A DNA stretch of 64,000 bases from Rhizophagus irregularis (taxonomy: Eukaryota). A model generated the notes under the pieces. That model was not told where the DNA came from. It saw nothing but the letters and a program-made list of their open reading frames with translations, and made no database searches. Both the position numbers and the translations under genes were made by a program. Of the stretch, positions 28,048 to 55,885 are shown piece by piece. Each line of letters starts with the position of its first letter. Within the stretch, counting starts at the first letter, position 1. The stretch is taken from contig NC_089433.1 of the NCBI RefSeq assembly GCF_026210795.1, positions 5,518,001-5,582,000 on the forward strand, read 5' to 3'.

Positions 28048-31000
28048 CTATTTATATAAATTATTTACCATCGAAGAAAGATAATCAAAGAACTTAGTTA
28101 CTAACCCTTTTCCCTCTGCTTCTTTCATTGTACGTACAGTATTAATGATCATAATCATCATACTGATTATATTCATTACTTCTTCGAAATCACTTCCTAA
28201 TTTAGTTTTTAAATATTCCATTGCTTTTTCATATTTTTCCTTTAATTCTGGTTGAATATGAGTCGTTTTTAGGAAGTTTAAAATTATAGCAGTATGCATT
28301 AACTGTTCATTTCGTAAATATAGGTGCATTTTATCTCCTTCGGATTCGAGACAACTTGTAACGTGAAGTACCAATGACTCAAATTTAAGTTCTTTAGAAA
28401 CAGTATCAGAAAGTTGTAGAGATCCATCATTCCTTTGGCATGATAATGCATCATGTATTACTTCTTTGGTGAATTTAGCTATATCGGTCAATACTTTAGT
28501 TACTAACTCTTTTTCCTCTACTTCTTTCGTTGCAGTATTAATGATTATATTGATTCTATCCGTTACTTTTTTGAAATCACTTTCTAATTCAGTTATTAAA
28601 TATTTCACTGCTTTTTCATATTTTTCCTTTAATTCTGGTGGAATATGTTTCGTTTCTAGGAAGTTAAAAATTATAGCAGTATGTAGTAACTGTTTATTAT
28701 CTCGTAAACATTGGTTCTTTGGCACTTTATCTCCTTCGGATTCGAGACAACGTTCAACATGAGATACCAATGACTCAAATTTAAGTTTTTTAGAAACAGT
28801 ATCAGAAAATTGTAGAGATCCATTAACCCTTTGACATGATAATGCATCACGTATTACTTCTTCGGTGAATTTAGCTGTATCGGTCAATACTTTAGCCTTT
28901 TCCTCTTCTTTCATTGCGCATACAGTATTAATGATCATACTGATATTCATTACTTTTTCGGAATCACTTCCTAATTCAGTTCTTAAATATTCCACTGCTT
29001 TTTCATATTTTTCCTTTAATTCTGGTGGAATATTAGTCGTTTTTAGGAAGTACAAAATTATAGCAGTATGCAGTAACTGTTTATTATCTCGTAAACATTG
29101 GTTCTTTGGCACTTTATCTCCTTCGAATTTGAGACAACGTTCAACATGAGATACCAATGAATCAGTCGAAAGTTCTTTAGAAACAGTATCGGTGGATTTA
29201 GCTGTATCGGTCAATACTCTATTTACTAACCCTTTTTCCTCTGCTTCTTTCATTGCACGTACAATATTAATGATCATACTGATTCTATCCATTACTTTTT
29301 CGGAATTATCACTTTCTAATTCAATTCTTAAATATTTCACTGCTTTTTCATATTTTCCCTTTAATTCTGGTGGAATATGTTTCGTTTTTAGGAAGTATAA
29401 AATTATAGCAGTATGCAGTAACTGTTTATTCTCTCGTAAATATTGGTTCTTTGGCACTTCATCTCCTTCGTATTTGAGACAACGTTCAACATGAGATACC
29501 AATGAATCAGTCGACTCAAATTTAAGTTCTTTAGAAACAGTATCAGAAAGTTGTAGAGATCCATCCTCCCTTTGGCGTGATAATGCATCATGTATTACTT
29601 CTTCGGTGGATTTAGCTGTATCAGATCCCCAACTAGACAAAGAAGACAAAATAGATTCTTTCTTTTTATTAAAAGCTTTCTCAACTACTAATTTCTCACA
29701 GGATTCTAAAATTTCTTTTTCTAATTTTTCATCCTTGATTTGAGTACGCAACCAAGCGAGGGCTCTTTCCTTTTGAGTCGTCATTTTTGATTGATGTTTT
29801 CCTAACATTTTATTGCAATAAGCAATTGTTATAAATGTATCCCATACTTTGGTATCTAAGTTTTTGACACGTTCATCAGTAATACGGACGGAGGATGAAA
29901 TATTTTCAGTTGTGATTTCTCCAAGTTTTTCGGTAATCTGGTCAGATATTTTATCATATGAACCCTCTTCATTTTGAATTTCAATAATTTTTGTGATCTC
30001 TTCTTCAGTTACAGTTTCTTGAATTTCTTGGACAATCGTTTGTTCCGCTTTTTCTTTGATTACTTTCTTGGCTGCATGATCGACAACAACTGTATCGGTT
30101 TTTTCTAATAATTCTTTAATTTTTTCTTCACTTCCTAATTCAGTCTTCAAATATTTTTCTGCTTTTGCAACTTTTTCTTTCAATTCTGGTGAAGCGTCAG
30201 TAGATGATGTTTTTCTGAGGAAGGATAAGGTTATAGCTGTATCTATTACTTTTTTGTTCTCTGGTGCTTTTGTTCCTTTACCGATGAAATAAGTTTTAGT
30301 AGATGAAACTAATGATTCATTAGATTCAACATCAAGCGCCTTAGAAATGGTGTCAGGGAGTTCTAAGGATCCATCTTCTTTTTGGGATGATACTATTTGT
30401 TTTGCTTTTTCGGTTGTGGTAGAGCTTTTGATAGTGGAAACGGCATCTTCCTTTCCTTTTTTGACACTTTGATCAACAATAATCTTTTCCGACGTTGTTA
30501 ATAACTCTTCTACTAATTTTTCATCTTTGAGTTCCTCAATAAGGTACTTCTTGGCTTTTTCAAATTGTTCTTTATGTTGATCTTGAGATTGAGAGGTAAT
30601 ATTTAAGTAACGGAGTGATAAGGCTGTCTCCCATACGTTCTTTGGGAGTGATTTTAATTTATCGCTAACACCATAAGTTTGAATTGAGGATTTTATGTTA
30701 TCAGAAGAGATGTTAATTTGATCGGAAACGGTTTTGTCTAATTTAATAGAACCATCGGGTTTTTGGTTTTCGACGATCGTGGTTTCTGATTTAAGATTAA
30801 TTAGCGTAGAAACTACAGTATCGGTTGTATTTTTACCCAAAGAATCCTTGGTTTGTTCATGCAATGATCCAATAGTAACGTCGACTTTATATGAAACAAG
30901 CTTCTTAGCACTTTCAGGCTTTAATTTAAGCCTAACAAGATCAGTGAATTTAATAACAAATTCTTCAGCAAATTTTACAGCAAATTTTTTGATAAGTTTA

Positions 31001-32099
31001 GATTTTTTAATTTTTGTTGATTGAGATACGTCTATGGTTGCAGATTGTATTGCTTCGCCAACCCAACTGACCCAAGAAGATTCACTGGTTTTAAAGTGTT
31101 TGATGATAAATTTTTTGGCCAAATTATATAATCGTTCTTCAATGTCTTTATCGATTGTTTTCAAATAATTTTCATATATATTATATGAATTCCACATCAC
31201 GTGATTCATATAAGGCACATAATCTTTCTCGTTCCATAATGAAGCTTTAAAGAGTGCTGTAGGAGGTAAAAAGTTACGTAATGTATTCAATACATGAGCA
31301 AAATATCTTATGTAATTAATAAAATTATAATTATTTCAAGTTACCTGCAATTAATATATTATCAGAAATAGTTTTTACTTTTTCATCATTAATAGTATCA
31401 ACAAATGTTTTTATCAATTCCTTTAATTCCTTTTCGGAATTAAAATTAAATAAGATTACTAATTTGTCTAGTTTGACACTATCATTTTGAGTTATCAAAT
31501 TACATAAACTATAAAAGAAAATAATAGTTTTAGAAAATTTTGTTGTTTTTGTTGTAAATTCACGATTAGAAAAGGAATAGAAATCGGCATCAAAACGGAG
31601 ATTTCCTTTATTAGGTCTGGGTAGTATACTATTTTTTGGTTTTATTAAATCATGTTCAAGATCCAATTTCTTTCCTTCAATGAAGTTTTTTGGATTAAAG
31701 ATATAAGATCCCAAACTTATAGACTTAAAGAAAGCAATATCACCACAAACTCGAATCTTTAATTTTTTATCAATATTATAAATTGGAATATAAAAGACTT
31801 GATTCCACTTTGAATTGATGTTTTCGCAGACATGAGTTTTGCTATATTTATTACCACTCTCTAAACAAGTAATTCTTACATCTAAAGTATCACTATTGAG
31901 ATTTTTAACATTTACAATATTAATTCGCGCTACTCCAAGTAAATCTAATTTGATAAAATTCATAACTATTAATAAATGACTCAATAAAACAAAATTTTAA
32001 ATTGATTTTTCACGGACTTGATTCAGAGACATCTTCCTTTGAAAATTCTACAGTATTAGGTTCCGTACTAATAGGATCATTTTCACTTATTGTAGACAT
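28048..32099 (-). CDS. Large protein: N-terminal C2-like domain plus about 7-8 helical Q-x-x-DGS repeats; exons about 32018-32099, 31345-31944, 28048-31256
   Basis: The 217-aa ORF has C2 features (GVARINI, SKTHV..NINSKWNQVFYIPI, LKIRV). Intron 31257-31344 (GTAACT...CTACAG) joins it in frame to the 1080-aa ORF with repeats Q..DGS(L/I).L...TAI.L..L...EKA..YL..EL. Confidence 0.75.
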
Positions 32100-37720: not shown

Positions 37721-37896
37721 TTAAATTTTATTAATGAAACATTTTTATTATGTAAATTTTTGTTCAACTTATTATTTAGTCAAGTGATCATCAATCAGAT
37801 GATTTTTTGGTATTACAAAACAATTTTGAGTAACGAAACTTGTGCAAATCAATTCAATAACTCTTTTTAATGCAGAGTAGACAAATCAGCCCATAT

Positions 37897-38912
37897 ATAG
37901 GGTTGATCACCCTATCTCAGTAGTTGGTTACTGAGACCCTCATTAAGCCTGAGTATGGTGAGGTCGCAGGTTCGATTCCCATGATCACGGAAATAAAAAG
38001 AATTTTACTGCGGACGCTACCACCAATAGCGTGAAGATACAGGAATTAGGTAGTTGGACTGCACCATGGTGAATTAGTGTGTACGGTTAGGCCGCACATT
38101 TCAACAAAGGGTTATGGTGTCCTTCTAACATTCTCTATGAGGTCATTGGGATGTTTGGAGTCCTGTCTGTGAGGTCACTGCTTGCATACCTTGGGGTAAT
38201 TTCCTGTCCAGGTGGTCACTCAAATGATACCGCTTGGGGTCCAATGTAGCTAGATGGTTATTATAGATGGTAAAATCCTGGGTGCAATGACTTTGTGATA
38301 GTTTACCTTCTAATAGGTTTAGGCCAACTAGGATATTCCTGAACAGACAGGTGTACTAGGTGAGGTATGGAATTCAACTCCCTACTAGGCGGGTACTGGG
38401 TGGCAGCTTGGGTGGTAGGGCACCACTGGAAATAATCCCAAACAAGCGAGTCTGTACTATCTCATGTTTTCTCTGTCTCAGTGGTCACTACTATACCATT
38501 GGAGATTCACAACTGTACTGGGGGTGGGCTAAGGAATCGTGAGGCTGTAGTGGCCTGGTGTCGAGCTTTCAGTTCTTCGAAGTGTGAATGTTAGTACAGA
38601 AGGGTTTCTAGATGATTGCCATTACATCTGGCACTGAAAGTCCTCCATTACTAAAACAGGCCAGGGTGGCATAATATAAATTTGAGCTTGTCTTGCCTCT
38701 AGAATGGATAAAGGATGAGTAGAGGGTTATAGCTAGCCAGTTAGTATTCTGTCGATGGATAGGGACTATCCTGAGGTCAAACTAAAATGGCAGTTGTAGT
38801 GATAAAAAATTTGCCTACTAACACCAGTTGGATGGTAGTCGTTGGTAAATGTTGGACTACCATGCTATAAATAGGTTCTTAAATGTGAACCTTTACCTTG
38901 AGTCAAATAACA
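37897..38912 (+). mobile_element. About 1-kb tRNA-headed SINE-like element flanked by an 18-bp direct repeat
   Basis: AGACAAATCAGCCCATAT at 37879-37896 and 38913-38930; head with A-box-like TCTCAGTAGTTGG and B-box GGTTCGATTCCC; body much more GC-rich than flanks. Confidence 0.75.
37904..37988 (+). pseudogene. tRNA-derived head (pseudo-tRNA; AAG at the anticodon position)
   Basis: Hairpin TCTCAGTA/TACTGAGA; CTCA-TTAAGCC-TGAG arm; T-loop GGTTCGATTCC; TGATCA at both ends; non-canonical spacing. Confidence 0.65.
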
Positions 38913-38930
38913 AGACAAATCAGCCCATAT

Positions 38931-39760
38931 GATATATCATTATAGGTTTCAATTTTGCAATCATTTCGGTCTAAAGTTGATCCAACAATACAATCTAAAT
39001 TTGTTGAATATTGCAACCCAGACTTTAAAATTGTACAATCTGTCATGGCTACAACAGGACCTTTATAGTGTAATAAATCTAAGAGCCTTTTAAATTGAGC
39101 AACATTCTTATAACAAAGGTTGAGATTGTTAATAGCGTCTTCAGAAATACTTCTATGATACCTATATAGTACATATAAAAAATTATGCTTAATTATAAAT
39201 ATAATCATGCTAATTAGATAATTTTTAATTGTACTATCATTATCTTATTGTACGAATTGTTATACCAGCTAAATTCTGATAGAACAAATCCAATGCTTTT
39301 AAACTAATACTTCCTAATACTATAAGAAAATTTTAAAATTCAGTTAGATATTTGAGATTTCGTAAACCTTTTTCTTGTTCTTTATGTTCTGCAGCTTGTA
39401 ACATAATATAGTAAAGTCCTTTAAATACTGGTTTTTGGTCAAATGCACCTTGAACAGCTTTATTAGCAAGTTCCATCCAAAATCCTACAAATGAATCCTT
39501 AGTATTAAGAAATTCATTTAATTGTTTAATATGACCATTTTTTAGATATATTAATAACGGATTATTTTCATAATAAAATTTTGGTATAAATTTAGTATTT
39601 TTTGGATTGGAAATTACACAATGCAAATGATTCAAAAAAGTTGAATTAAAATGAATATGGGAACATGGTGAACAAGGTTGCTTATAAGTTTTTTCTCATA
39701 GTTGACTGATTGAACGCACATTCCTAAATTAAACGTCAGTATTAATAAATTGATAAATAA
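38931..39760 (-). pseudogene. Fragmented transposon-associated ORF (possibly P-element/THAP9-like), truncated at the SINE-like element
   Basis: ORFs 39333-39635 and 38903-39208 (GAFDQKPVFKGL...KGLRNLKY; NLCYKNVAQFKRL...GPVVAMTDCT.LKSGLQYS...CIVGSTL) with stops and frameshifts between them. Confidence 0.55.
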
Positions 39761-40040
39761 TCATCATACAGTTAACTAATTTTTCTTACCAAGATGATCA
39801 ATAAACCATTCTGATTCAACGATCATTTACTAATTAAAATCGATTATTTTCTCCTTATTGAACTTTTTAGAATTAAATGGTAGTTTATTTGGAAACTTAT
39901 TTGGAAACATTGTTTTTCCAATTACTTCTCATCGTCATACACCTCTATATGTAGCTAGTGCTCGATTAATATAAGTAACAATTTGTTCAGAATGGAGTTT
40001 AGAACATGGTTTATTTGGAAATAATAGCAGTGATGGTTAA

Positions 40041-40278
40041 GGTTGCTTGTCTAAACCTCTTCAAAATCCTACGATTAGTTTCATCAAAATTTTACTATAG
40101 ATTTATTATAGTTTCGGCAGAGTTTCGGCAGTTTCAGCATTTATAATAAGTTTCGGCAGTTTCGCCTTTCTCCAAAGTTTCGCCAGTTTTTTAATATAAC
40201 TTTAATATAGTTTCGGCAGAATTTCGCTTTTCGGCGAAATGCCATCTTGCCTAAATCCTTAGGTTTCAGCAAGCAACC
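40041..40278. mobile_element. 238-bp MITE (PIF/Harbinger-like), copy 1
   Basis: TIR GGTTGCTTG...CAAGCAACC; TAA at 40038-40040 and 40279-40281; internal GTTTCGGC repeats. Confidence 0.9.
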
Positions 40279-40791
40279 TAAGGACAAGTATGTTAGGCAG
40301 AGATGAAGTCTTCTAAGTCTTCTCTTACTTTTTAGGATTAGGTGTACACAGAAACAAACCAGGTAAACCAAGTTGTCATTTTTAGTTATTTATTTTACAT
40401 CTTGAGTTTCTAGAATGTTAGTTAAGCCTTTTCTCATCATAGTCGTTATTAAAAATAACTTTTTGTTTACATTTGCAAAATACTTTACATTTATTAATAA
40501 TAGTTGCACAAAATTTATTATCACTTAAGCGAGTTCGAGTATGCTTTCACTTCAACATTATAAAAGTAAAGTTTTAGTTTTTGTAAAAAAACGCATATTT
40601 AGTTTCAAATATATACTTTTAATCGTGAAAAAGGGTGAAAAAAAATACCAAAACAGGATAAATTTGCCAAAACAAATAATATGACTATGAGAAAATCCAT
40701 AAAACATATAATATGACTATAAGAAAATTCATACAATTCGCCAAAACTAAAAATTATGACTACCCCTTAATTCGTGATCTGTAAACAAAGT

Positions 40792-42006
40792 TAAAGCTCT
40801 GAACGGTTCGGGCTAAACTGGGGAACCAATCCGAAACCGGCTCAAAATTCGGTTCGGTTAGGTTCGGGCATTAGAACTGAAAACCCGGCGGTTCGGTTCA
40901 GTTTAATCTGATTTTTATAAAAATGCAAAAAATCGAATAGCTGGCCATCTAGTGATCGTACAAAGTCGAGCCATATATCATTGGATTCGTCTCGACGAGA
41001 CGTGTCGAATGGCGGTAAGATCATGTCTCTAGCATTGAAAGATCACACGTTAACCCACGCTAAATAATTTATAAATAATTGGAATTAGCAAGCTATCTAT
41101 CGGAGCTAGAGACATGATCTTAGCATCATTCGACGCGTCTCAGTGAAACGAATCCAATGAATATGAATTCGTTCGTGTATGACCACTGGATGGCGAATAA
41201 TATCAAGTTTCGCATTTTTTTAAAATTTTCGAGCATTAAAAATTAAAAATTCCGATACATGAATTTATTTGTCGTCCAATGGCCGTACAAATATGAATTA
41301 GGACTCATTGGATTCGTCTCGATGAGACGAGTCGAATGGTGGTGAGATTATGTCTCTAGCATCGATAGATAGCTTGCTAATGCCAATTTTTTATAAATCA
41401 TTTAGCGTGAATTAACTTACGATCTATTGATACTAGAGACATGATCTCACCACCATTCGACTCGTCTCATTGAGATGAATGCAATGAGTCTTATTTCATA
41501 TTTGTACGACCATTGAACGACGAATAAATTCATGTATCGGAATTTTTAATTTTTAACGCTCGAAAATTTTAAAAAAATGCGAAACTTGATATTATTCGCC
41601 ATCCAGTGGTCGTACACGAACGAATTCATATTCATTGGATTCGTCTCACTGAGACGCATCGAATGGTGCTAAGATCATGTCTCTAGCACTGATAGATAGC
41701 TTGCTAATTCCAATTATTTATAAATCATTTAGCGTGGGTTAACGTGTGATCTATCGATGCTAGAGACATGATCTTACCACCATTCGACGCGTCTCGTTGA
41801 AACAAATCCAATGTTATATGGCTCGACTTTATATAATCACTAGACTTTGTACGATCACTAGATGGCCGACTATTCGATTTTTCACATTTTTTAAAAATCG
41901 GATTAAACCGAACTGAACTGCCAGTTTTTCGGTTTGGTTCTTACAGATTTCAGCTCTAATCCGAACCATCTATAATCTGGACCAAACCGACCCGTTTGGA
42001 ACTTTA
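40792..42006. mobile_element. 1.2-kb non-autonomous foldback element (hAT-like)
   Basis: Imperfect TIRs TAAAGCTCTGAACGGTTCGG / CCGACCCGTTTGGAACTTTA; 8-bp TSD AACAAAGT at 40784-40791 and 42007-42014; interior is a long inverted repeat. Confidence 0.9.
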
Positions 42007-42690: not shown

Positions 42691-42974
42691 CTGGCAGTTT
42701 CGGTATTTGATGTGTCTTTGTTCAAAAAGGTAAGTTTTGAGTAAAATGTAGTCACAATTTTATAAGCAAAAAATGCCTACCTTTATTTTGTTCTAATGTT
42801 TCATTTAAAGTTGCTGGGCGAAATTAAGTAGTTTAGACAATTGTTGAAATCGAAACTAGTTGAAACATTTTATTAAAAAATTAAAAATTTGCAAAACTGC
42901 AAAACTGACGAAACTGGTAAAACTGTGAAAGGTTAGTAGTATATAAATCCCAGTTCTGGCTCACTTTCCTCAGA

Positions 42975-43106
42975 GTCCAATCCTAGTTACCTTTTTCTTG
43001 CTACCCCCATTGCTCCCCCCACCAGCTGTGGGTCCAATCCTGGTTACCTTTTTCTTGCTACTCCCGTTGCTCTTCCACCGGCTGTGGACCCAATCCTGGT
43101 TACCTA
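42975..43106. repeat. GC-rich tandem repeat (about 57-bp unit, about 2.3 copies) left of the virus-like cassette
   Basis: (g)tccaatcct(a/g)gttacctttttcttgctac..cc.ttgctc..ccacc.gctgtgg repeated. Confidence 0.8.
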
Positions 43107-43169
43107 TTTATATTTTCACCTACTTATATCACCATTTTTACCTATTTATACCACCTATTTCACCTACTT

Positions 43170-43532
43170 CTTTACTAAAAATGGCCAATTTTTTGAAATG
43201 ATTTTGTAATAATTTTAAAATACTACAAAAATACATTTAATACATCAAAATGTTTTTATTATATTTTTGCTATTATTTTGTAATTATATTGTATCTAGGT
43301 CTATAAAAATAACTCAAAATAATATCACAATAATTTTTTAATGTTTTTGTTATTATTTTATTATTATAATATAATTAACTTTGATATTATTTTAATATTT
43401 TAATCTCAAAAATACCTTAAATATATCTTGATATATTTTAAAAATTTTACAAAATAATTGCACAATTGTTTTGAAAGCCATTGTATCTAGGTCTATAAAA
43501 ATATTTCAAAAAATTGGCCATTTTTAGTAAAG
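43170..43532. mobile_element. 363-bp AT-rich MITE with probable 2-bp TSD (TT)
   Basis: 30-bp TIR CTTTACTAAAAATGGCCAATTTTTTGAAAT and its reverse complement; removal restores the local cacctacttat repeat. Confidence 0.85.
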
Positions 43533-43779
43533 TTATTTCCTTACATCACCTATTTTATCTACTTTTTATTCATCCTACTTATATTTTCACCTACTTACTC
43601 CCAACTGAACAAAAAATAGGATTTCAAAGCCAACGGAGTCAAAAAAAGGTAAGGAAATATTAACCCATCCAGGAAACCAGCCATGGAGTCAATAGAGCAG
43701 AATAGCAAGGCAAGCAATTACCCTTATACCGAGAAAAAATGTAATTGAATAAAAGATTCATATATAAAAGGTTTACAAG

Positions 43780-44424
43780 ATGTCACAATACAGACCATCA
43801 CTAAGACGTGTACTAGGCCAGTTTGAACTCAACATAGAAGAATGGGTAAAGGAAATAATGTGGTATTTAGATATAGCATATTTAAAAGCTTTAGATTCCG
43901 AATTTAGCAAAGAAAGTATGTTAGTATCTGGAATAGGAGAGCTAGTAGAAATATTTGATGAGATGTTAGAAGGTGATGATATATGGATACATCCATCACT
44001 TTTATCACGAGTAAGATATTCTATTCTACCAGATGAAATGGCAATATATGAAAGATTTTCAGATATCATTAAGAACTTCTCAGAGGATAAAAAATTAGCA
44101 TATGCATTATTAGACTTAGTAGAAATATTATCAAAAAAGAAACCTACAACATTCAACATTATAAATTACAATATACAAAGAATATTCACAAATCCTAATG
44201 ATGAATATAGAAATGAATTCAGCATCTACCATATTAAAGAAGATGAAGATATGGATGAAGACACAGATGAAGACATAGATGAAGACATAGATGAAGAAGA
44301 GCAGAATGAATTTAATGAATACTACCAGAATCTTGCACCAACCACCGAGAGTCAACTGGATAAGCTAAAAAATAAGTTGGCTATAACTCTATGTGACGAA
44401 TGTCTTATGCCAACAAGAAGTTAG
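43780..44424 (+). CDS. Intronless hypothetical protein (214 aa) with acidic tract and C-terminal CxxC
   Basis: Long clean ORF; DEDxDEDx tract; LCDECLMP; convergent with the B263R-like ORF. Confidence 0.7.
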   Translation: MSQYRPSLRRVLGQFELNIEEWVKEIMWYLDIAYLKALDSEFSKESMLVSGIGELVEIFDEMLEGDDIWIHPSLLSRVRYSILPDEMAIYERFSDIIKNFSEDKKLAYALLDLVEILSKKKPTTFNIINYNIQRIFTNPNDEYRNEFSIYHIKEDEDMDEDTDEDIDEDIDEEEQNEFNEYYQNLAPTTESQLDKLKNKLAITLCDECLMPTRS

Positions 44425-44482
44425 GAATGCGATTGCTGGATTTTACAAATAGAGGGTTTCTAGTTTTCAGTGAAACCATTTT

Positions 44483-45274
44483 TTACCTCTCGCAATCTGG
44501 AATAGGTGCATCACAAATAAAATCTCCAAAATCATATGGATTAGAAAACAACTTCTGTAAGAACTTATAAACCATATCAGCATCCAATTCAGTCTTAGTG
44601 CCAAATATATTAACCTTACCAGATTTAGGCCAGATATATACCTGAATCTTTGAAGTAAAGATTATAGCAATTTTAGAATGAATATCACCCGCATCATTCT
44701 TAATATATTTTATTGGAAAGGGAAGAATCTCACGAATACCATCTATAGACTCTAAAGCATATGCTAAGGTAGAAAGATTAATAAACTTATCACCTCCAAT
44801 ATTAATTACAAATTTATAATTGCGCAGGAGAGCCTTATTTTCACCCACAAGTTCTACAGAAGAAAACTCAGGTAGGGAACATTCAGAAAGGTAACGTAAG
44901 AAGATAGTAACAGGATTAAAAGATCCAAAAACTTGTATACTATCAGATTTAGGAAAATAACGAATAGTATGTACAGTATCAGCTAAGATGATAACAAACT
45001 CAATGCATGCATTAAAAGTGCTACTATCTCCTGTACGTCGCCATCTATTTAATGGATTGTCAGGTGTACTTCGTCTGCATCGCCTCTCACCTTTTAGTTT
45101 AGACAAGTACTGCTCATAACCCTCAAAAGCTTTATAAATAAAGTTACTATTAATAGCAATAACATCCTTAGTAGGTTTAAGCTTATTACCAAGTATGGCG
45201 TAATCAAGTCCTTCAATATTGATTTTAAATTCAGTAATAGTAAGAGACGGAGTAAGTTCACTAAAAGTAATCAT
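44483..45274 (-). CDS. B263R: Asfarvirus B263R-like TATA-binding-protein homolog (263 aa, intronless)
   Basis: Colinear motifs AINSNF...EGYE, RRTGDSSTFNACIE, FPKSDSIQVFG, NYKFVIN, PFPIKYIK, SGKVNIFG...VYKFLQKL and PIPD, compared with ASFV pB263R as recalled (ALNCNF...PGYE, GDGTCFNSAIE, FPSTGEIQVPG, NFKFQIN, PYPIREIK, KGKINILG...IYTFLKDL, PVPD). Two TBP half-repeats. Confidence 0.88.
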   Translation of the reverse strand: MITFSELTPSLTITEFKINIEGLDYAILGNKLKPTKDVIAINSNFIYKAFEGYEQYLSKLKGERRCRRSTPDNPLNRWRRTGDSSTFNACIEFVIILADTVHTIRYFPKSDSIQVFGSFNPVTIFLRYLSECSLPEFSSVELVGENKALLRNYKFVINIGGDKFINLSTLAYALESIDGIREILPFPIKYIKNDAGDIHSKIAIIFTSKIQVYIWPKSGKVNIFGTKTELDADMVYKFLQKLFSNPYDFGDFICDAPIPDCER

Positions 45275-45378
45275 ATCTAGTTTTTTCTATTGAAAGAAAA
45301 GAAATGTTCAAATTATTTTATCCTAAGAAAAAATCTAATTAAATAAAACTTCTTCATCAATATCTTATACGAGATACC

Positions 45379-45909
45379 ATGACAAATAATAGCTTACCTC
45401 CTGAACTTTTAGAAAAGATATTCAAAACTACATATGAAGGCACTTACTACCGTTGGTATTATCTTCAAAAATATGCATTAGTGTGTCAAAAATGGGCTGT
45501 AGTAGCAAACTCTTTCCTATGGGGTGAAGTAGACCTTTATAACCGCTATAATGTGAAGGAGTTCCAAATGTATAAACATCTTACAAAACCAGGAACAGTA
45601 TGCGGAAAATATATCAGAAAGCTTAATATGGATGAGGTAAAATTATGGCCCATTTGTATTGTAAAAATGCTACAAGCTTGTCCTAATATCCAGGAACTTA
45701 GCATAAAAGATTATCAATACTATGGTGGAAAAGGTGACGTTAGAGATTTGCTAAGTGAAATCCTGCATATATTACCAAACCTTCAAAAGTTAGATATCAG
45801 ATATAGCCAGAGATATTTTAACAAGGAAAATGCTATTGAAAAACTTATAGAAACCCATAAAAACCTAGAAATCAGAGTAACACGTAAATGTGATATTTGC
45901 AAAGGCTAG
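45379..45909 (+). CDS. Intronless F-box/LRR protein (176 aa)
   Basis: F-box SLPPELLEKIF...ALVCQKW...LW; LRRs CPNIQELSI and LPNLQKLDI; terminal CDIC. Confidence 0.85.
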   Translation: MTNNSLPPELLEKIFKTTYEGTYYRWYYLQKYALVCQKWAVVANSFLWGEVDLYNRYNVKEFQMYKHLTKPGTVCGKYIRKLNMDEVKLWPICIVKMLQACPNIQELSIKDYQYYGGKGDVRDLLSEILHILPNLQKLDIRYSQRYFNKENAIEKLIETHKNLEIRVTRKCDICKG

Positions 45910-46140
45910 CCACTACTCATTACTATTCGTTACTGCCAAAAAAAATTTGGGCACTGCCCTGTCACTGCCAAAAAAATTTGAGCACTACCCTGAAACGTAC
46001 GGTTCACACTGGGATATCATGCTGATTACTGCCCATTACTGTCAAAAAAATTTGGGTACTGCCCGTCACTGCCGAAAAAATTTGGGCATTACCCTATCAC
46101 TGCTCGCTACTGCCCAACATTACCGCAGAAGTTTGGGAAA
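45910..46140. repeat. Degenerate tandem array (CACTGCC-An-TTTGGG) right of the virus-like cassette
   Basis: About 5 copies of actgccaaaaaaatttgggcactgccc variants. Confidence 0.8.
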
Positions 46141-46366
46141 TACATGGACTTTTTCTAGCAAGATGACGCTTTAACTTAGAGGGAAAATCAAAATTTGCTC
46201 CACATAGATGACAGGTTAATCTTCCTCGAGAGTGTGAATTTTTTTTAAGTCGATAGTATCCATCTGCAAGGAAGTCACATTAGTTTTTCGTTTATGTAGA
46301 GAAATTGGAATGGTAATTTTCTTACGTGATGATAGAGGGATGGTCAGTTGCCGATTTTGGAAATCT

Positions 46367-46662
46367 AGGACCCCGGATATCTTCAAAACAGGTCATAAGT
46401 CACACTTTCGGCAGATTGGCCCATTTTTCAGGGGCTCAAAAAATCGTTTTTTGTAAATATCTCGGCATCCAGTGGTCCAATTTTGATGAACTTTTTTTTA
46501 AATTGTAGAGCTAAATGAGGGCTACAAAATAAAAAAAGTTCATTAAAATTGAATTACTGGATGCTGAGATATTTACAAAAAACGATTTTTTGAGTTTCAG
46601 CAAAAAGGGGTGTTTTTGGCCAAAAGTCCATTATGACCTTTATATTAGATATCCGGGGTCCT
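46367..46662. mobile_element. Palindromic MITE core
   Basis: AGGACCCCGGATATCT / AGATATCCGGGGTCCT, plus inner arms CTCAAAAAATCGTTTTTTGTAAATATCTC.GCATCCAG and its reverse complement; TSD not resolved. Confidence 0.8.
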
Positions 46663-47200
46663 GCGTATATCCTATTTTCATACCTTGCTTAACAGCTCCA
46701 CTATTTATTTAAAAGCGGCTTTTCTCTCTTTTGTATGTGGGTAGTGGGTACATTTTTCCTTTCTTTTATTCTTTTCTTTCATATATGAATGGCGAAAGAC
46801 ATTTTCTTTTTCTTTATTCTTGCTTTTATTCTTGCTTTTCGTATGTGGATGTCTTACTATGTTGAATATATAAACTAATAAAGTATTGTTAATATTGTAA
46901 AGAGATAATTAAAGTATACTTTAAAAAGAAAAAAGAAGAGACGAACTAAAATATCGTAAAGTGTTAATATAAAAGACAAGAGAAAAGCGTATTTTTGAAA
47001 ATAAACAAAAAAAATCTCATTAATAAACGCGAATTTTAGCTATTTTTAGATATCACATGCATGTAATTAAAGTGATTTTAATTGGTTAATTTTAATTTAT
47101 TATTACATCATGCATATGATTTTATTGGTTAATTTTAACCAAAATTTTATACGATACAAATTAAAATAACTATTTTATTATATTTATATAATTAATATAA

Positions 47201-50200
47201 TTATATGGCTGTAAAATAAAAATTATTTTTTATCCAAATTCTATTTGTAGTATCATGATTTGGTAGTTGGCACCTTTCTGAATTACAATTATGAATAAAG
47301 TGTACTTTTTGAACATTATCTATTACAGTAATTGGAAAAATACGTCTCCATTTATCTCCTGTTGCTTGAAGACGGTAAAGTGGACATTTTAATACTGAAT
47401 GTTCAACCATAGTATCTTCAAACCAATCTACAACAATAAATGCATAATATTTGTTATTATTACCCTTATGTTGAAAGATACCTTTGATTATTGCATAAGA
47501 TTCTTCATGATCTTCTTCATAAATTGTGATAAAATCATCGAGATGTAGGTGAACTTTTGAAAGGATACCATTTTCTTCTTCAATCATATATGATGCAAAT
47601 TTGTACCAACTAATTGAAGAGTTTATAAGTGCCGCCGCCTCAAACTTCATATCCACATAAGATAAAAACAATTCAGTTTTAAAATTATGTAAAGTTAAAA
47701 GAAGTTTATCACGTTCCTGCTTTGACATTCTTTTTTTTAATGAAATATTGGAAATAAAGTTTACTGGAGATATAACTAAATTAAAAGATTAGTAAATATA
47801 AATATCAAACATGTACTACTATATGCAATAAAATACTTACTTTTTGTATTATCATCATCGTCTTGAACTTGTTCAGTTGCTTCAGTTGAATATTTATCTT
47901 CTGTAACATACCAATTTAAAAATAATTGTCCAAAATTTGAATTTGTAAATCCAGTACAAGATCTATTAAATCTTGGATCAATACCACCATCTGCTAAATG
48001 TCGAATTGCAAATAAAGTATTGTAACGCTTTAATAAATCCAAATCTATGTTTTTGCAATTAGTCTTTGGTACCATCCCCTTAAAAATACGATGGACCATT
48101 TCTTTTATACCAACTTGGGTATTAATAAGTGTTCCAAAGGTTTTAGCATGCATCAAAAGATGCATATTAACGTGTATGTTTGGTAAATTAACAAAATTTA
48201 CAAAAACCTATAAAAAGTAAAATATTGTTAATTATTTGAAATTATTCCATATTTCAATATCAAATTTGTAACTATACCTTTGGAAGGATTGAAAACTCTT
48301 CTTCAAGACATTGTTGCAATTCCTCATAGCTATCTGATGTAAATTTCTTGTTAAAAACCGCTTTCATAGTTTTTGCAACATGTATCTAACAAAATATAAT
48401 AATTTTTGAAACTGAACTAACTCAAAATGCATTAATTCTTTGTTGAATCATGGCTGTTTCATTACGTTTGATACTTGATTCTTTTAAAAACTGGTTTAAC
48501 AAAAATGGCATAATCATAACTAATCTAAGTAAATCCGACATCATAAAACTATTGTAGTGAGTAATCGGATTTGGTAAGCGAGACCATCTTTTTGGGATTT
48601 CAAAATTTTTCCAAATTTCGATAAAATTATCTTTTCCTTCTCGTGAAAATAATTCACAAGTTAATTTTAGTAGCCGCCCAATCTTTCCTGCAGTCGCATG
48701 ATAAACATCCTGCGGCGTCTGTAAATGTCTTTTCCTTTTTAATTTATCTAAAATACTAGGTAATGATCGTAAACCATATTCCGTACAAAGTTGATCTCTT
48801 CTTGACATTATAGTCTCATGAGGAAATTTTTAAGATTTCTTCGTCTGTAATATGATGATAACGTAATGTTGTTACAATATCCTGATTGTGAGCACTCAAT
48901 GATTCTTTAGTAGTTTTACAAGTACGACAACCCTTATTTGCATTATGTCTAAATTTATTTTTTAAAAAATTTTAATAGTTGTCATAAAATTATATTATTA
49001 TATTATTAACTAAATTGAAAAAATACCTTAATACTCCTGTCATATCATTACCTTGAGGTAAATCTGCCATAACAACGCCTAAACCAGCAATTATCCATGC
49101 ATCTTGTCCTTGGACAGTCATCACCTTTCCTTTCTCTAATTCCTTCATTTCTGAAATGAATGGTATCATAAATTCGACAAATTTTCCTTCAAATGGGATA
49201 AACCCAATGACAAAATGGTTCTTTATTAGCTTTTTTTGATGTGCTGGCATATTTCCAAACTGTGCATAAACACCACCTAGAAAATGGTATACATTTCTAA
49301 ATGTACCAAAATCATCATAATAAAGATCTAAAAACAGCTTATAAATTGGCATAGATGATAATGGTGGATTTCTAATAGAAATGTAATCAGATGGATGTAG
49401 GTATGAAAGCTTTACATTACGAACGTGCCAACGGTCATTACATTTATAAATTATTTCACTAATCCACAATGAACCATCAGGAATATTTTGATGTTGAAAC
49501 ATTATCAATATAGTTACTTTTTCTAAAATTTGAGAAGTCATTATAATTAAAAATGGTTTGTCTTGTAACCATACTTCACCGGTAATAGAACGACGTTGTC
49601 TTGGTAACCCTTTTAAATTTCTGGGTAAATCTCTATATTCCAAAATTTTTTGAATTCGTAACTGATAATATCCATCATCATTTTTTAAAATTGATCTTAA
49701 TCTTCCAAGTTTTTTTTGACCATTATCATCATGATAGTAAACAAAATCACCAGATCGGTACAATACTATTTATTAAAAATAACTTTAATAAATATTATCA
49801 ATGATAATAAATTATAATTGTATCAAAGTGTATTATTTTATAACCTTCTGATATTAATATTTCGTGTTGTTCAAAAAGTGGGGATTCCCCCATAAATTTC
49901 CATGCCAAAATTCTGATTTTTCTTCAGAATTAATGCCGGGTCCAAAATACATATGCTTCATTAGCATCGGATTATTAAGAACACGTCATATAATTTCACT
50001 GATTGAGAGTTGATACGAAAGTTTTGATCCTCATGAGGTTGATAGAGTTTTTTTTGGTGAAATTTTAATAGACTTTGTTATTATTGGTAGGAGAGCCCTA
50101 TAAAAAAAAATTTTACTTAAAATATATTTAAAATATATTTAATTTTCTTTAAAATATACTTAATTTTCTTATTTTATACTTAAAATATACTGAAAATTGA

Positions 50201-51179
50201 ATTTTCGCAAAATTTGAATTAAATTGTATTTAATATATACTTAAAATATATTTAATTTACATTTAAATTTTGCCCATTTCAGTATATTTTAAGGATATTT
50301 AAAATAAGAATATTTTAAGTATATTATTATATACTTAAATTATACTTAAATAATATTTAATTTTTGCCTATTTCAGTATATTTTAAGTATAAAATAAAAT
50401 TTTAAATATATTTTAAGTATAAAATAAAATTTTAAGTTTATTTTAAGTATATTTTAGCAAAAATATTTTTTATAAGGGAGGAAGACGTTTTCTCCATGAT
50501 TGGAATCTTCAGATATTTTTTACCACATGGGTGGTTCAAATTGAGAATTGTGAATGATATCGATAAGATCTTCATATGCTTTCGTAGAAACATTATGCTT
50601 CTGAAGCCAGCAAAATAATGCCGTAGTTGTATAATTATTAAAGTACGGTGCAAACTCACCATTGCAAAACGGTATCTTGTCTTCATCTAATGCTTCAACA
50701 ATTTGATCTATTTCTTCCTCTTCATTATTACGTTCCTCTTCATCGTTATTACGTTCCTCTTCCACTTGATTATTATAATTATCATTGTTACCTTCCTCCT
50801 CCTCCTCTTCGTCATTGTTTTCATTATTATCTTCCTTCTCTTCCTCCTCTTTATAATTGTATTCGTTATCACTGTCTTCTTTCTCTTCAGTATCAGATGA
50901 ATTGACATTATCTTGCGAAAATATCATCTCATCATTGTAGTCTTGAGGATTAATTGATCCATATGCATTATCGTCATCATTAATGTCTTGAAAACTTAAA
51001 TCATCTTTATGATCATACTGAAAGTCCATGTCATCGTTATCATTATCAGGTGAACGTACAGGCGAACGAATTGCAACTCTCTCGTCAGAATCTGTTGTCT
51101 CATTAGGTTTACTGTAAGAAAACCAATTTCGAATTTGAATTGGCTCTATTGATTTATTGTGACTATATCGTCTTCTCAT
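47201..51179 (-). pseudogene. Disrupted Plavaka/CACTA-like transposase (acidic N-terminus, BAH-like segment, catalytic region)
   Basis: YRSGDFVYY, KLFLDLYYDDFGTFRNVYH.LGGVY, NHFVIGFIP, GVV.ADLPQGND..GVLR|HNANKGCRTC, QTPQDVYHA.AGK, NLPNIH...EMVHRIFK and VHFIHNC; stops, frameshifts and a MITE insertion. Confidence 0.8.
50096..50478. mobile_element. 383-bp CCC...GGG MITE (CACTA/EnSpm-like, 2-bp TSD AG) inside the transposase
   Basis: CCCTATAAAAAA...TTTTTTATAAGGG; AG at 50094-50095 and 50479-50480; excision restores R-L-P-L-L-P-I. Confidence 0.88.
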
Positions 51180-51264
51180 CTTTTAACAATTTAAATCCTT
51201 AACTTAATTTAGAATTTTTATAAAATTCAATAAATCTTTATAAAAATTATTTATTAAATACCTT

Positions 51265-52051
51265 AATTGCTAATTCGGTTAAGATCAGCAGTATCCTACT
51301 ATGTAAAATTGGGGAAATTGGTGCAAATAATAAAAATAATTATCATATGATCTAATAATCCAATTTTGATGAACTTTTTTTTGTTCTGTAAGTCTGGATT
51401 ACCTTTATAAAATAAAAATAATTTCATTGAAATTGGACCATTAGGTTGTGAGATAATCACAAAAACATATTTTACCGACAACGATCAGATTCCATTAATA
51501 ACAAAGCAGACAATTATCTCCTGATTCAGTGATCCAATTTCGATAAACTTTTTTTTGTTATTTGGATCTCAATAATCTCTACATAATAAAAAAATTTTGT
51601 CAAAATTGGGCCTCTAGATCGTGAGATAATTGCGAAAACATATTTTGCCAGACGATTTTTAGATTCATGATATAGCAAAATATATCTTTGTGATTATCTT
51701 CCGATCTAGCAGTCCAATATTGACAAACTTTTTTTTATTGTGAAGAAGAGGTTAAGACCTAAAAGACAAAAAAAAAATTATTGAAATTGGATCACTGAAT
51801 TAGGAATCAATTCTTTTTTTATGATTTACTAAAATTTAGTCATAATAATAATATGAAATACTTTTTCACGATTTTCTTATAATTTAGTATTTCAATTTCA
51901 ATAAATTTTTTATTTTATTGAGGAAATCAAGATCTATAGAACAAAAAAAAGTTCATTGAAATTGGATCATTGGATCAAGAGATAATTATTTTCTTTTTTT
52001 GCCCCGATTTTACATAGTAAGACACTGCCGATCTTAACCGAATTAGCAATT
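51265..52051. mobile_element. 787-bp non-autonomous TIR element with 8-bp TSD
   Basis: About 50-bp TIR AATTGCTAATTCGGTTAAGATC.GCAGT.TC.TACTATGTAAAAT.GGGG; AATACCTT at 51257-51264 and 52052-52059. Confidence 0.9.
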
Positions 52052-52135
52052 AATACCTTTTATATTGTTTAGCGTATCGACAAAAAAACCAAAATCAATT
52101 TGGTTAAAATTATTACCGATTTGCTATAGATTCTG

Positions 52136-53913: not shown

Positions 53914-54321
53914 ATTAGATTTATCCTTATAATTTTATTAGAAAATGCAATTATATATCGAGGGTAAGCCAAAGGAAAGGAAAAGTGCTCTAGGAACGAA
54001 GTACTACAAGAAATTCAGTGAACATTTTTGGGAAAAATGACGTAAATATTAGAAAACTACGTAAATATTTTATTTTTTTTTATTTAATTCATAAATTAAT
54101 CTGATTATTTATTTAGAAACAATTTATGATATTGCTCACGAAATCAACACAACAAGCTATACAACAACTCCGCCATCCTCACCACTACATTCACCAATAT
54201 GCTCACCTATATCACCTCTCCATTCACACTCATCATCATCACCTACGCCTCTCCGTCACTCATCACCTACACCTCTCCTCCGTCACTCATCACCTACACC
54301 TTACCGTTTACGAGGCTCTAA

Positions 54322-54559
54322 AGTTGCTTGCCGAAACCTAGGGGTTTAGGCAAGATGGCATTTCGCCGAAAAGCGAAATTCTGCCGAAACTATATTAAAG
54401 TTATATTAAAAAACTGGCGAAACTTTGGAGAAAGGTGAAACTGCCGAAACTTATTATAAATGCCGAAACTGCCGAAACTCTGCCGAAACTATAATAAATC
54501 TATAGTAAAATTTTGACAAAACTAATCGTAGGATTTTGAAGAGGTTTAGACAAGCAACC
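54322..54559. mobile_element. 238-bp MITE, copy 2 (inverted relative to 40041-40278)
   Basis: Near-identical reverse complement of copy 1; flanks TAA and TTA. Confidence 0.9.
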
Positions 54560-55885
54560 TTACGAGGCTCACCTTCATATTATGAAATCATTAAAATTGA
54601 ATAATTTCACCTCTCCGTTTACGCTCACCTCACTTCATATAAAATTGTAAATCTTTCAAATCATAATTACTATTTTGTTATATTGATGTCTGTACAACAT
54701 TCAATTTTGCTTAATATTATATTGCTGTACAACATTCAATTTTTTTATTTTCCAAACGATGTATCTTTCATTATTTGGAAAAAAATACTATTTACTTTAC
54801 TACATAAAATAATAAAATATGCTAAATCATTAAATAAGCAAATAAGCAGATCGTCACTGTATTATTTCAATTGGAATATTTTAATTATAACCTCCACAAT
54901 TAATCATGAAAATTATTTTGAGAGTATTCTAGCAACCATCAAACTGTACTATGTTTCATCCATTTATCGTTTAAAAATTTCTCTTCCTTTAGCAGTTAAG
55001 TTTATAAATTTCTATTTAATGGTACTATTGAAATGTAAATTCGTTACCAACTCTAAATATTTTTGAATTTTGTAGCTTTACATAATATTCTATAGACTGC
55101 TATTATTGAATCACGACTTTCTTTTCATAATTGTATAAAAATCATATGTTAAGGAGTTGCATTGTCTTTTCGCAAATTTAGTAATCAGTCACATATGAGT
55201 AAAAAGGTTTGATTGGGTTATTTAGATGCAATAATATCTTTAACATTACGTAATTTAATGCTGAACGATAATAGTAGCTATAATGGCTATACTTTTTGAG
55301 TTTGGTGCATATTATTGTATCACATAAAATGATACTTCACATGATTAATTTCTTCTCACTCCTTTCTTCTAATATTTTTCTTCTTACTCCTTATATGGCC
55401 TAAAAAAGTATAATAAAATTTATGAAATTGAATCGTAAATACGCAATAAAATAAAGATTTGGAACTGATTTGAAGTAATCTTCTATATAAAAAAAGTGTC
55501 CAGTATTCACTTTTATTATTAAATGAAATACAAATTATTTATATAAATTAAATTTAATTTTTGATCTTGAAATTATAATTTTTAGTTTTTCCATCTCCTG
55601 ATATTTTTAACTGATCCTGCATTTTACACAATACACAATGATATTGAGATCATATATATTTTCCAATTAAATACTACAATCATAATTACAATAGCTAAAA
55701 TCTCAAAATTATATCATGATAACCTCGCCCTTTTTTTTTGTTCATTCAATGTTTATCACCTACTTTTTTGAGCAAGAAAGTTGCTCCACATTTTTTATTC
55801 ATTCATATTTTCTCAATATATATCATCTACTTTGAAACAAAAAGGTTGTTCCACTTTTTTTTTCGCTCATATTTTTTTTTATATT

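Follow-up and report, generated by a model that had tools for sequence, protein, structure and literature searches.

We conclude with high confidence that the locus at about 42935-46368 is a truncated and decaying left end (~3.4 kb) that belongs to a Polinton/Maverick-type element present in many copies. This element is likely the one known from Rhizophagus irregularis, and its full form carries genes for a retropepsin, a Gag-like protein, an rve integrase and a putative PolB. All positions refer to the window, the whole 64,000-nucleotide stretch that was analyzed. The three ORFs at this locus are not a self-contained cassette but part of a larger virus-like transposon, and the window copy is unable to move by itself.

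Organization of the locus

The fragment and its borders contain the following features.

42810..42934, + strand: left half of a GTTGCT-ended MITE, cut at the start of the element; 40042-40277 and 54323-54556 are members of the same MITE family
42935..42945, + strand: putative left terminus with an AGTAGT start; this 11-mer occurs nowhere else in the window and directly adjoins the cut MITE
42975..43109, + strand: subterminal 57-bp GC-rich tandem array (TRF, 2.4 copies; 52% GC)
43168..43533, unstranded: AT-rich MITE with 39-nt inverted ends (inverted repeat I23), inserted into the element end
43780..44424, + strand: ORF1, an acidic protein of 214 aa with a C-terminal Cys4 motif and no named relative
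44483..45274, - strand: ORF2, a two-lobed TBP-fold protein of the asfarvirus B263R type, 263 aa, with a basic loop at residues 59-83
45379..45909, + strand: ORF3, an F-box-like protein of 176 aa with a short putative LRR region and a C-terminal CxxC
45910..46140, + strand: CACTGCC tandem array, an internal spacer and not an end, between the convergent F-box and retropepsin genes
46216..46368, - strand: last 50 codons of a retropepsin gene, a stub cut by a MITE
46367..46662, unstranded: MITE with inverted ends at the break point; the window lacks the remainder of the element

A preliminary description of this DNA reported three tightly packed ORFs between a GC-rich array on the left and a CACTGCC array on the right. 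Both arrays are present, and we confirmed the ORF coordinates and the gaps of 58 and 104 bp. The retropepsin stub, the two MITE insertions, the cut left MITE and a premature stop in ORF1 are absent from that description. The ORFs had also been called less AT-rich than their flanks, which is not borne out: the GC content of the cassette is 31.9%, compared with 33.3% in the left 3 kb and 28.5% in the right 3 kb, and six other ORFs in the window range from 26 to 35%.

At the left border, the MITE at 42810..42934 aligned to the two other copies with local scores of 73 and 69, compared with a maximum of 43 in 300 shuffles, and this cut MITE was likely the insertion target of the element. Polintons have ends of AG or AGT repeats, and the putative terminus at 42935 is placed from one copy and this motif. 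The neighboring 57-bp array, at which depth exceeds that of the unique left flank in 4/4 runs, likely lies within the terminal inverted repeat. The element end also exists without the AT-rich MITE, as the joined form (43167 to 43533) was found in three of four runs. We also asked whether a 245-nt inverted pair (40038-40282 and 54318-54562) delimits an element of 14.5 kb. We rejected this, since both arms carry inverted ends of their own and are therefore two MITE copies.

The arrays had been thought to bracket the unit, yet the element extends past the right one into the retropepsin gene. Because the stub of that gene, cut by a MITE, is kept in the window beyond the array, the array is internal. 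The stub is 68-78% identical to the retropepsins of the relatives L004, L006 and L008 (E 1e-17 to 1e-19), and other copies continue beyond 46368 in three of four runs, one of them as a 2,208-nt contig. The array is built of ~31-bp repeats at 45932-46103, and its spacer holds short tandem repeats of other sequence in all four relatives tested. A three-gene cassette that stands alone between the two arrays, possibly a self-moving non-autonomous unit, would fit the tight packing, the conserved order and a depth well above that of the unique flank. It is nonetheless barely credible: the element passes the right array in the window and in other copies, that array is an internal spacer in relatives, the two arrays have no similarity to each other, and no cassette-skipping joint occurred among 15 of 27 joints. 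Among the joints listed, none represented an empty site for the whole element.

Gene content and order of the element family

The criteria used for Polinton/Maverick elements were an rve integrase, terminal inverted repeats of 100-1500 bp, target site duplications of 5-8 bp, a length of 13-25 kb and multiple copies. The family is multicopy, with 56- and 62-member clusters and at least 19 TBP tags in one strain, and relatives give an element length of at least 8.2 kb. An rve integrase is encoded in the soil contig L008 (Pfam rve E 3e-10), and the window copy has none. The right end and its flank are missing from the window, and no complete element, terminal inverted repeat pair or target site duplication was obtained; elsewhere in the 64 kb there were no further matches to element proteins.

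In soil relatives, ORF1, the TBP gene and the F-box gene are followed by genes for retropepsin, a Gag-like protein, rve integrase and PolB. The preliminary description had found no transposase, and in full-length relatives the rve integrase, PolB, Gag-like and retropepsin genes lie beyond the F-box gene. Among 32 soil loci with a TBP gene, an ORF1 homolog was present at 13, an F-box ortholog at 11 and all three genes at 5; the same loci carried retropepsin (12), Gag-like (3), integrase (2) and PolB (1) genes, most of the contigs being 1.1-8.2 kb and too short for more genes. In strain DAOM 197198, 9 of 19 TBP tags fall within five tags of one of 22 integrase tags, among the tags listed, compared with a chance mean of 0.11 and a maximum of 3 in 20,000 random draws. 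One 45-kb contig encodes integrase CAB4408612, TBP ...616 and ORF1 ...617.

PolB comes from the single contig L008, whose F-box and TBP proteins are 38% and 52% identical to those of the window. Its C-terminal 363 aa show PolB motifs and a weak PHROG DNA-polymerase match (E 0.001), with no match in Pfam or PDB, and the protein-priming region was not recovered. The Gag-like assignment is weak, with matches to Retrotrans_gag at E 0.03 and to zf-CCHC at E 0.05. Within the 8.2 kb of L008, up to PolB, we found no double-jelly-roll capsid, penton, packaging ATPase or adenain protease, the genes that mark virion-forming polintoviruses and adintoviruses. We also considered whether this element corresponds to the multicopy polB genes (15-33) of Zhao et al.; we claim no such link because the N-terminal parts seen resemble long RNA-primed polymerases by eye.

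Substitution ratios indicate purifying selection on each of the three genes across the family, with dN/dS of 0.22-0.48 for ORF1 (5 pairs), 0.08-0.28 for TBP (12 pairs) and 0.18-0.37 for the F-box gene (5 pairs). The genes had been viewed as cargo; strong purifying selection, together with an order conserved down to ~40% identity, argues that they are working parts of the element rather than passive cargo. The proposal of a mobile, virus-derived, multicopy unit stands, and its gene order is kept in distant relatives. The TBP encoded in the window shares 88.6-93.5% identity with nine other copies, whereas identity among those nine is 92-99%. The window copy is itself decaying: a premature stop in ORF1 (44422-44424; the family stop is at 44461-44463) costs two of the four cysteines.

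The three encoded proteins

ORF2 adopts the two-lobed TBP saddle fold, as found by both structure comparison and Foldseek, and its affinity is with asfarviruses. Its predicted structure (pLDDT 86.6) aligned to archaeal TBP with Z 13.5 and rmsd 3.0 over 178 residues, and the first chain not of TBP type scored Z 7.6. The closest named relative is the B263R homolog of Abalone asfa-like virus (profile E 5.2e-22); unnamed environmental proteins score higher. Compared with TM 0.72 and E 1e-15 for the asfarvirus homolog, cellular TBPs reached TM of at most about 0.5 and E 6e-7 or weaker, and ORF2 is thus closer to B263R than to cellular TBPs. Sequence searches of PDB and Pfam with ORF2 returned nothing, and 3 of 42 relatives matched Pfam TBP weakly. 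A basic, NLS-like loop with 5-11 K/R is present in 42/42 aligned TBPs. The preliminary description was right to place a TBP of giant-virus type, by fold and profile, next to an F-box gene.

This affinity raises the alternative that the locus is a piece of the genome of an endogenous giant virus, asfarvirus-like in type, and not of a Polinton, and an asfarvirus-like 1.5-Mb insert is indeed known in one R. irregularis strain. We regard this as very improbable, since the neighboring genes encode integrase, Gag-like protein, retropepsin and Polinton-type PolB rather than NCLDV core proteins, and many dispersed copies are 98-99% identical. Moreover, viral_contigs contained no relative of the TBP. 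Searches of the same set with the integrase, the terminal motif and an outgroup TBP also gave none, and no relatives were found in prokaryotic genomes. A Polinton that carries an asfarvirus-type TBP remains our reading of the locus.

An SCF adaptor of the F-box/LRR class would have an F-box motif, an LRR substrate domain and Skp1 binding, and for ORF3 the sequence gives partial support to this assignment. The F-box-like start gave Pfam E 7.9e-5 and 22.8 bits, just below the 24.3 cut-off, which two ORF3 relatives (L002 and L008) passed; the LRR part is weak and consists of four short LxxLxL-type motifs only.

ORF1 is acidic as described, with 23% D+E compared with 10% K+R. Its N-terminal region is predicted to form a four-helix bundle, and the best VIA Z was 7.3, to generic four-helix bundles. 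ORF1 had no match in Atlas, no viral match by Foldseek under E 0.4 and nothing significant in a profile search against PDB. TFIIB was considered as an identity for ORF1 and is unsupported. A 120-aa ORF at the same place in a distant subfamily aligned by hhalign with E 0.04 and a probability of 1.3%, which is only suggestive of homology.

A shared upstream motif

The three genes have a common motif upstream, AWTTGAAYA followed by an A at +24, at these sites.

43744..43768, + strand: upstream motif of ORF1 (WTTGAAYA, A at +24), putative promoter
45288..45313, - strand: upstream motif of the TBP gene, putative promoter
45337..45362, + strand: variant upstream motif (G to A) of the F-box gene, a site separate from that of the TBP gene

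The motif lies ~25 nt before the putative start, with predicted leaders of 2-18 nt, and its core matches the published early motif of asfarviruses and mimiviruses, AAAATTGA. We found no earlier description of such a common motif. Judged from sequence, this signal may be a giant-virus-type promoter.

An unlikely explanation is that the motif results from the AT-richness of the spacers together with shared ancestry, and that no promoter is common to the module. The motif was picked after inspection, rows within a gene share ancestry, and it occurs at only 3/16 other element gene starts, with none before integrase or Gag. Against this, the motif is present in 14 of 19 rows, compared with 2.3 by dinucleotide shuffling (maximum 8), in 9.7% of AT-rich background and at 2/27 other ORF starts in the window; TTGAA is the top 5-mer in an unbiased ranking over four gene groups, and the A at +24 is found in 19/20 rows (permutation P about 1.5e-4).

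As regards transcription, we consider it quite possible, if a little short of probable, that the element is nuclear and autonomous, where host Pol II would read the genes and the element's own TBP would bind AWTTGAAYA in place of host TBP, with positive feedback. The TBP-like distance of the motif from the start, the NLS-like loop and the recent expansion of the family in the genome are consistent with this model, as is the count in the 1.5-Mb endogenous giant virus of R. irregularis. There, in bulk counts on both strands and not by position, the motif was not enriched: AATTGAATA occurred 43 times compared with 42 and 111 for two same-dinucleotide controls, and ATTTGAATA 27 times compared with 37. 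The short leaders and the match to the viral early motif speak against the nuclear model.

The resemblance of the motif to giant-virus early promoters hints at transcription by a helper virus, although the endogenous giant virus showed no enrichment. In this more speculative and rather improbable proposal, the Rhizophagus Polinton would lack a capsid, would be packaged by Gag and would live as a satellite of an asfarvirus-like giant virus of mycorrhizal fungi. A virophage-like satellite would share promoters with its helper and depend on co-infection. The terminal genes would stand behind giant-virus early promoters (AWTTGAAYA, start A at +24) and would therefore be silent in the chromosome until a helper virus supplied RNA polymerase and early factor. 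The TBP, captured from the helper's virus lineage, would redirect late transcription, and the F-box protein would disarm host or helper. If true, fungi would have a system of virophage type, and the element would act as a reporter for a not-yet-isolated dsDNA virus of AM fungi.

For the Polinton/Maverick element itself, we propose that the integrase of an intact copy would insert it into host DNA, that PolB would copy the linear form, likely protein-primed from the AGT-repeat ends, and that the Gag-like protein and protease would package it instead of a jelly-roll capsid. The three terminal genes would likely be an early accessory module co-activated through the shared promoter-like motif: the TBP would act on AT-rich promoters, the F-box protein would couple the SCF ligase of the host to one of the host's own targets, with ORF1 as a zinc-binding helper. 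What remains at the locus is a dead fragment; the element family from which it comes is known and accounts for dozens of 'hypothetical proteins' in R. irregularis annotations. Should the motif prove to be a giant-virus early promoter, the element would be tied to a still unisolated asfarvirus-like virus of AM fungi, and how capsid-less fungal Polintons are expressed and spread would become testable.

Comparison with known systems

Mavericks have expanded in Glomerales, and in R. irregularis this expansion is recent. A Polinton/Maverick of Glomus intraradices was reportedly described by Kapitonov and Jurka (2006) and by Pritham (2007). This host is R. irregularis, and the element is cited in passages of PMC7805220, PMC11296320 and PMC11952901, the first of which describes it as without a capsid gene. 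Our family shares with it the host, multiple copies, an rve integrase with a putative PolB, and no capsid gene seen; the window holds 3.4 kb of one end, and identity with that exact family is inferred. The preliminary description raised the possibility of an undescribed element, which this one probably is not, because Polintons/Mavericks of R. irregularis are known and proteins near-identical to ORF1 and TBP exist under the consecutive accessions DAC81702.1 and DAC81703.1.

The Fig. 5 legend of Starrett et al. 2021 (PMC8502044) gives a MELD-virus-related element with TBP and Matrix/Capsid/NC/Pro, the Fig. 3 legend names a Rhizophagus PolB, and the corresponding passage of the preprint (10.1101/697771) also lists Fbox. 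This is the same unusual gene set as in the family at this locus, whose TBP, F-box and Gag/protease genes were probably mapped in 2021, and we infer that DAC81702 and DAC81703 are linked to that paper. Which element carries TBP is not specified in the legend, and the passages concerned call TBP and F-box homologs of host proteins, with no mention of asfarvirus affinity or a promoter motif.

The TBP resembles asfarvirus B263R in its length (both within 262-272 aa), in the TM score above and in a profile match that is full-length. B263R is an early gene in ASFV (PMC7458399). The differences are an identity of ~20% and a location on an integrating element, on which neither RNA polymerase nor TFIIB was seen. 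Some virophages, Polinton-like viruses and transpovirons use giant-virus promoters, for example the pacmanvirus transpoviron (PMC11788076). Like them, our element is small and linear, and it has short predicted leaders and, ahead of some of its genes, a motif resembling an early promoter. In contrast, the element described here has a Gag-like/retropepsin module, no jelly-roll capsid seen, a TBP of its own and a helper virus that is hypothetical. The family is unusual as a Polinton that combines Gag and protease genes of retrovirus-like type with a TBP of asfarvirus type.

A probable truncated Polinton copy

ORF calls bore out the positions of three closely spaced genes, for an acidic protein (ORF1), a TBP (ORF2) and an F-box protein (ORF3), and their gaps of 58 bp (ORF1/ORF2) and 104 bp (ORF2/ORF3). 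Both repeat arrays described around them, a left 57-bp GC-rich array (42975-43109) and a right array of ~31-bp CACTGCC repeats downstream of ORF3, are also present. The unit is not less AT-rich than its flanks, as had been claimed, with a GC content of 31.9% against 33.3% in the left 3 kb and 28.5% in the right 3 kb; six other window ORFs have 26-35%. The nearest named proteins are from Rhizophagus irregularis, at 90-94% identity.

Element genes in the window
43780-44424, plus strand, ORF1 (ORF call)
44483-45274, minus strand, ORF2, TBP (ORF call)
45379-45909, plus strand, ORF3, F-box (ORF call)
46216-46368, retropepsin remnant, final 50 codons, cut by a MITE

Gene order was compared at 32 soil metagenome loci carrying the TBP gene. 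An ORF1 homolog occurs at 13 and an F-box ortholog at 11, and five hold the full trio in the order and orientation of the window. Retropepsin was found at 12/32, a Gag-like gene at 3/32, rve integrase at 2/32 and a PolB fragment at 1/32, and locus L008 reads PolB, integrase, Gag-like, retropepsin, F-box, small ORF, TBP, ORF1. In three of four public runs, a contig departs from the window sequence at 46368 and, judged by eye, the protease reading continues. Because the element runs on past the right array into retropepsin, that array is an internal spacer; other short repeats fill it in all four relatives tested. In strain DAOM 197198, 9 of 19 listed TBP locus tags lie within five tags of one of 22 listed integrase tags, where random draws gave 0.11 and at most 3 (partial tag lists, 41,500 genes assumed). 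Summed gene depth, which is not copy number, exceeds that of the unique left flank several-fold to several-hundred-fold.

The preliminary description had proposed a new mobile, virus-derived cassette. A mobile, virus-like unit stands, but the novelty does not, as what the window holds is very probably one member, cut short, of an already known Polinton family. No further element genes were found in the 64-kb window beyond the trio and the retropepsin remnant, and this copy has lost all mobility genes. Polintons integrate via rve integrase and replicate via PolB, as established in the available text of 10.1101/2023.08.22.554363. In an intact element, the integrase would insert it and PolB would copy it, the Gag-like protein and retropepsin may serve packaging, and the terminal genes would likely form a co-regulated early module in which the TBP serves AT-rich promoters and the other two act as SCF adaptor and zinc-binding helper.

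The soil loci also vary in content. At L008:2249-5357, a 743-aa coiled-coil/Gag-like protein with a zinc knuckle precedes a separate retropepsin ORF, a retrovirus-like module between integrase and F-box within a Polinton. One lineage (L005-L009, L011, L022, L024, L028-L031) has an extra ~83-aa ORF, with no family match, in the F-box/TBP gap. A distant subfamily (L014, L016-L021, L025-L027; TBP identity about 42%) has retropepsin directly before TBP; an ORF of 120 aa follows TBP, and then come a gene with ankyrin repeats and a number of small F-box genes. The accessory end is changeable, TBP constant. One of its copies, at L026:5984-7038, lies in host-like DNA with hAT-like transposase remnants upstream, and MITE-like, repeat-rich sequence interrupts its retropepsin gene near the window copy's break site.

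Putative left terminus and surrounding repeats

One MITE breaks off at 42934, directly before the start of AGTAGTATATA, and because it is broken precisely there we place the left terminus at AGTAGTATATA, a putative end seen in one copy. Polinton ends carry AGT repeats. The window copy retains this one putative end; no TIR pair or TSD was obtained, nor an empty site from public-run joints. Another MITE (43168-43533) is missing from other alleles or copies in 3/4 runs.

The cut MITE (42810-42934) is the third member of a family whose other two (40042-40277 and 54323-54556) are 96% identical and oppositely oriented. A large nested palindrome at 40800-41950 (434-nt arms, 92% complementary, 327-nt internal period) is probably a foldback MITE family, and a similar unit lies near 62340-62700. 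About 1 kb of 42% GC at 37890-38935 is probably a SINE-like insertion; it has a tRNA-like stretch close to the left end, and, judged by eye, each end carries the short direct repeat GACAAATCAGCCCATA. Broken minus-strand ORFs at 47200-51300, with related inverted repeats at 51250-52060, gave no Pfam match and resemble a degraded CACTA/Plavaka-type transposon. A 1053-aa ORF (28048-31209) contains internal repeats of about 129 aa (387-bp period).

The encoded proteins and their decay

The predicted ORF2 structure (pLDDT 86.6) has a TBP fold (VIA Z 13.5, rmsd 3.0, 178 residues aligned), and all 42 PDB entries among the matches listed at E <=0.001 contain TBP. Of the viral models with a name, the B263R homolog of Abalone asfa-like virus matches best (TM 0.72, E 1.2e-15); cellular TBPs reach TM about 0.5 or less. 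Profile searching matched the B263R homolog cluster end to end (E 5.2e-22), the only cluster with a viral name among the 10 of 150 matches looked up. The Atlas links ORF2 to Nucleocytoviricota TBP clusters, and a basic loop is kept in 42/42 aligned relatives. ORF1, for which no named relative was found, is a predicted helical bundle that has an acidic linker and, at its C-terminus, a Cys4 motif. The ORF3 N-terminus is F-box-like and its LRR part weak.

Across 22 pairs in all, dN/dS ranged over 0.08-0.28 (TBP), 0.22-0.48 (ORF1) and 0.18-0.37 (F-box gene); these low values argue that the genes serve the element. The window copy itself is worn. Its ORF1 stops 13 codons early, losing two conserved cysteines, and its TBP has 17 departures from family-conserved residues, some common to the R. 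irregularis clade. In a quick tree, no other R. irregularis-type copy has so long an end branch.

Relation to described elements

Available portions of earlier work mention a capsid-less Polinton in G. intraradices (PMC7805220, PMC11296320), Maverick expansion in Glomerales (PMC11952901) and, recently, in R. irregularis (PMC8647823), Polinton-type ATPases in Rhizophagus (10.64898/2026.06.19.733378) and an asfarvirus-like insert of R. irregularis (PMC10640383); those of PMC4028283, PMC3671162 and PMC10120064 hold no relevant text. Map legends of Starrett et al. 2021, in the text available, include TBP, Fbox and Matrix/Capsid/NC/Pro (PMC8502044; preprint 10.1101/697771). Near-identical ORF1 and TBP proteins have consecutive accessions (DAC81702.1, DAC81703.1), which we infer to be third-party records of that study, whose figure and supplement may say more. 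A search reaching few subscription journals found nothing on an asfarvirus affinity of the TBP or on the promoter motif, and the value of the locus lies mainly in its asfarvirus-type TBP and promoter hint.

A common motif before the gene starts

For TBP, ORF1, the F-box gene and the ORF replacing ORF1 in the distant subfamily, 19 gene-by-lineage regions were compared, and 14 of them have WTTGAA upstream of the start codon, at 12-41 nt and mostly at 27-41, against 2.3 (max 8) in dinucleotide shuffles, for a motif chosen after inspection and rows that share ancestry. AT-rich background gave 9.7% and other window ORF starts 2/27, and TTGAA came first in an unbiased 5-mer ranking. That the terminal genes have no common promoter is improbable. 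Once G-to-A variants are counted in, the consensus becomes AWTTGAAYA. An A follows 24 nt beyond it in 19/20 rows, in many of them as TA (permutation P about 1.5e-4, with one motif-less row left out and two genes added because they bear the motif). The motif's G falls at -21, as in vaccinia early promoters.

As a reader of the terminal genes, host Pol II acting together with the TBP of the element itself is quite plausible, falling a little short of an even chance. Reading by a helper giant virus seems rather unlikely, though less so than the lack of a common promoter. Against the motif as a promoter, it shows no enrichment in the endogenous giant virus (1.5 Mb) of R. irregularis, and it precedes only 3 of 16 other element gene starts, with integrase and Gag lacking it. 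The helper model stays alive because host TFIIB is reported, in the available text of PMC7221094, to be an unlikely partner of viral TBPs, and the search of the element for a TFIIB of its own gave none. Mixed cases take the small remainder. The motif is similar to AAAATTGA, an early promoter in mimivirus, pacmanvirus and ASFV, and the +24 TA is similar to the TA initiator at early genes of ASFV, as described in the accessible parts of PMC11788076 and PMC7458399, respectively.
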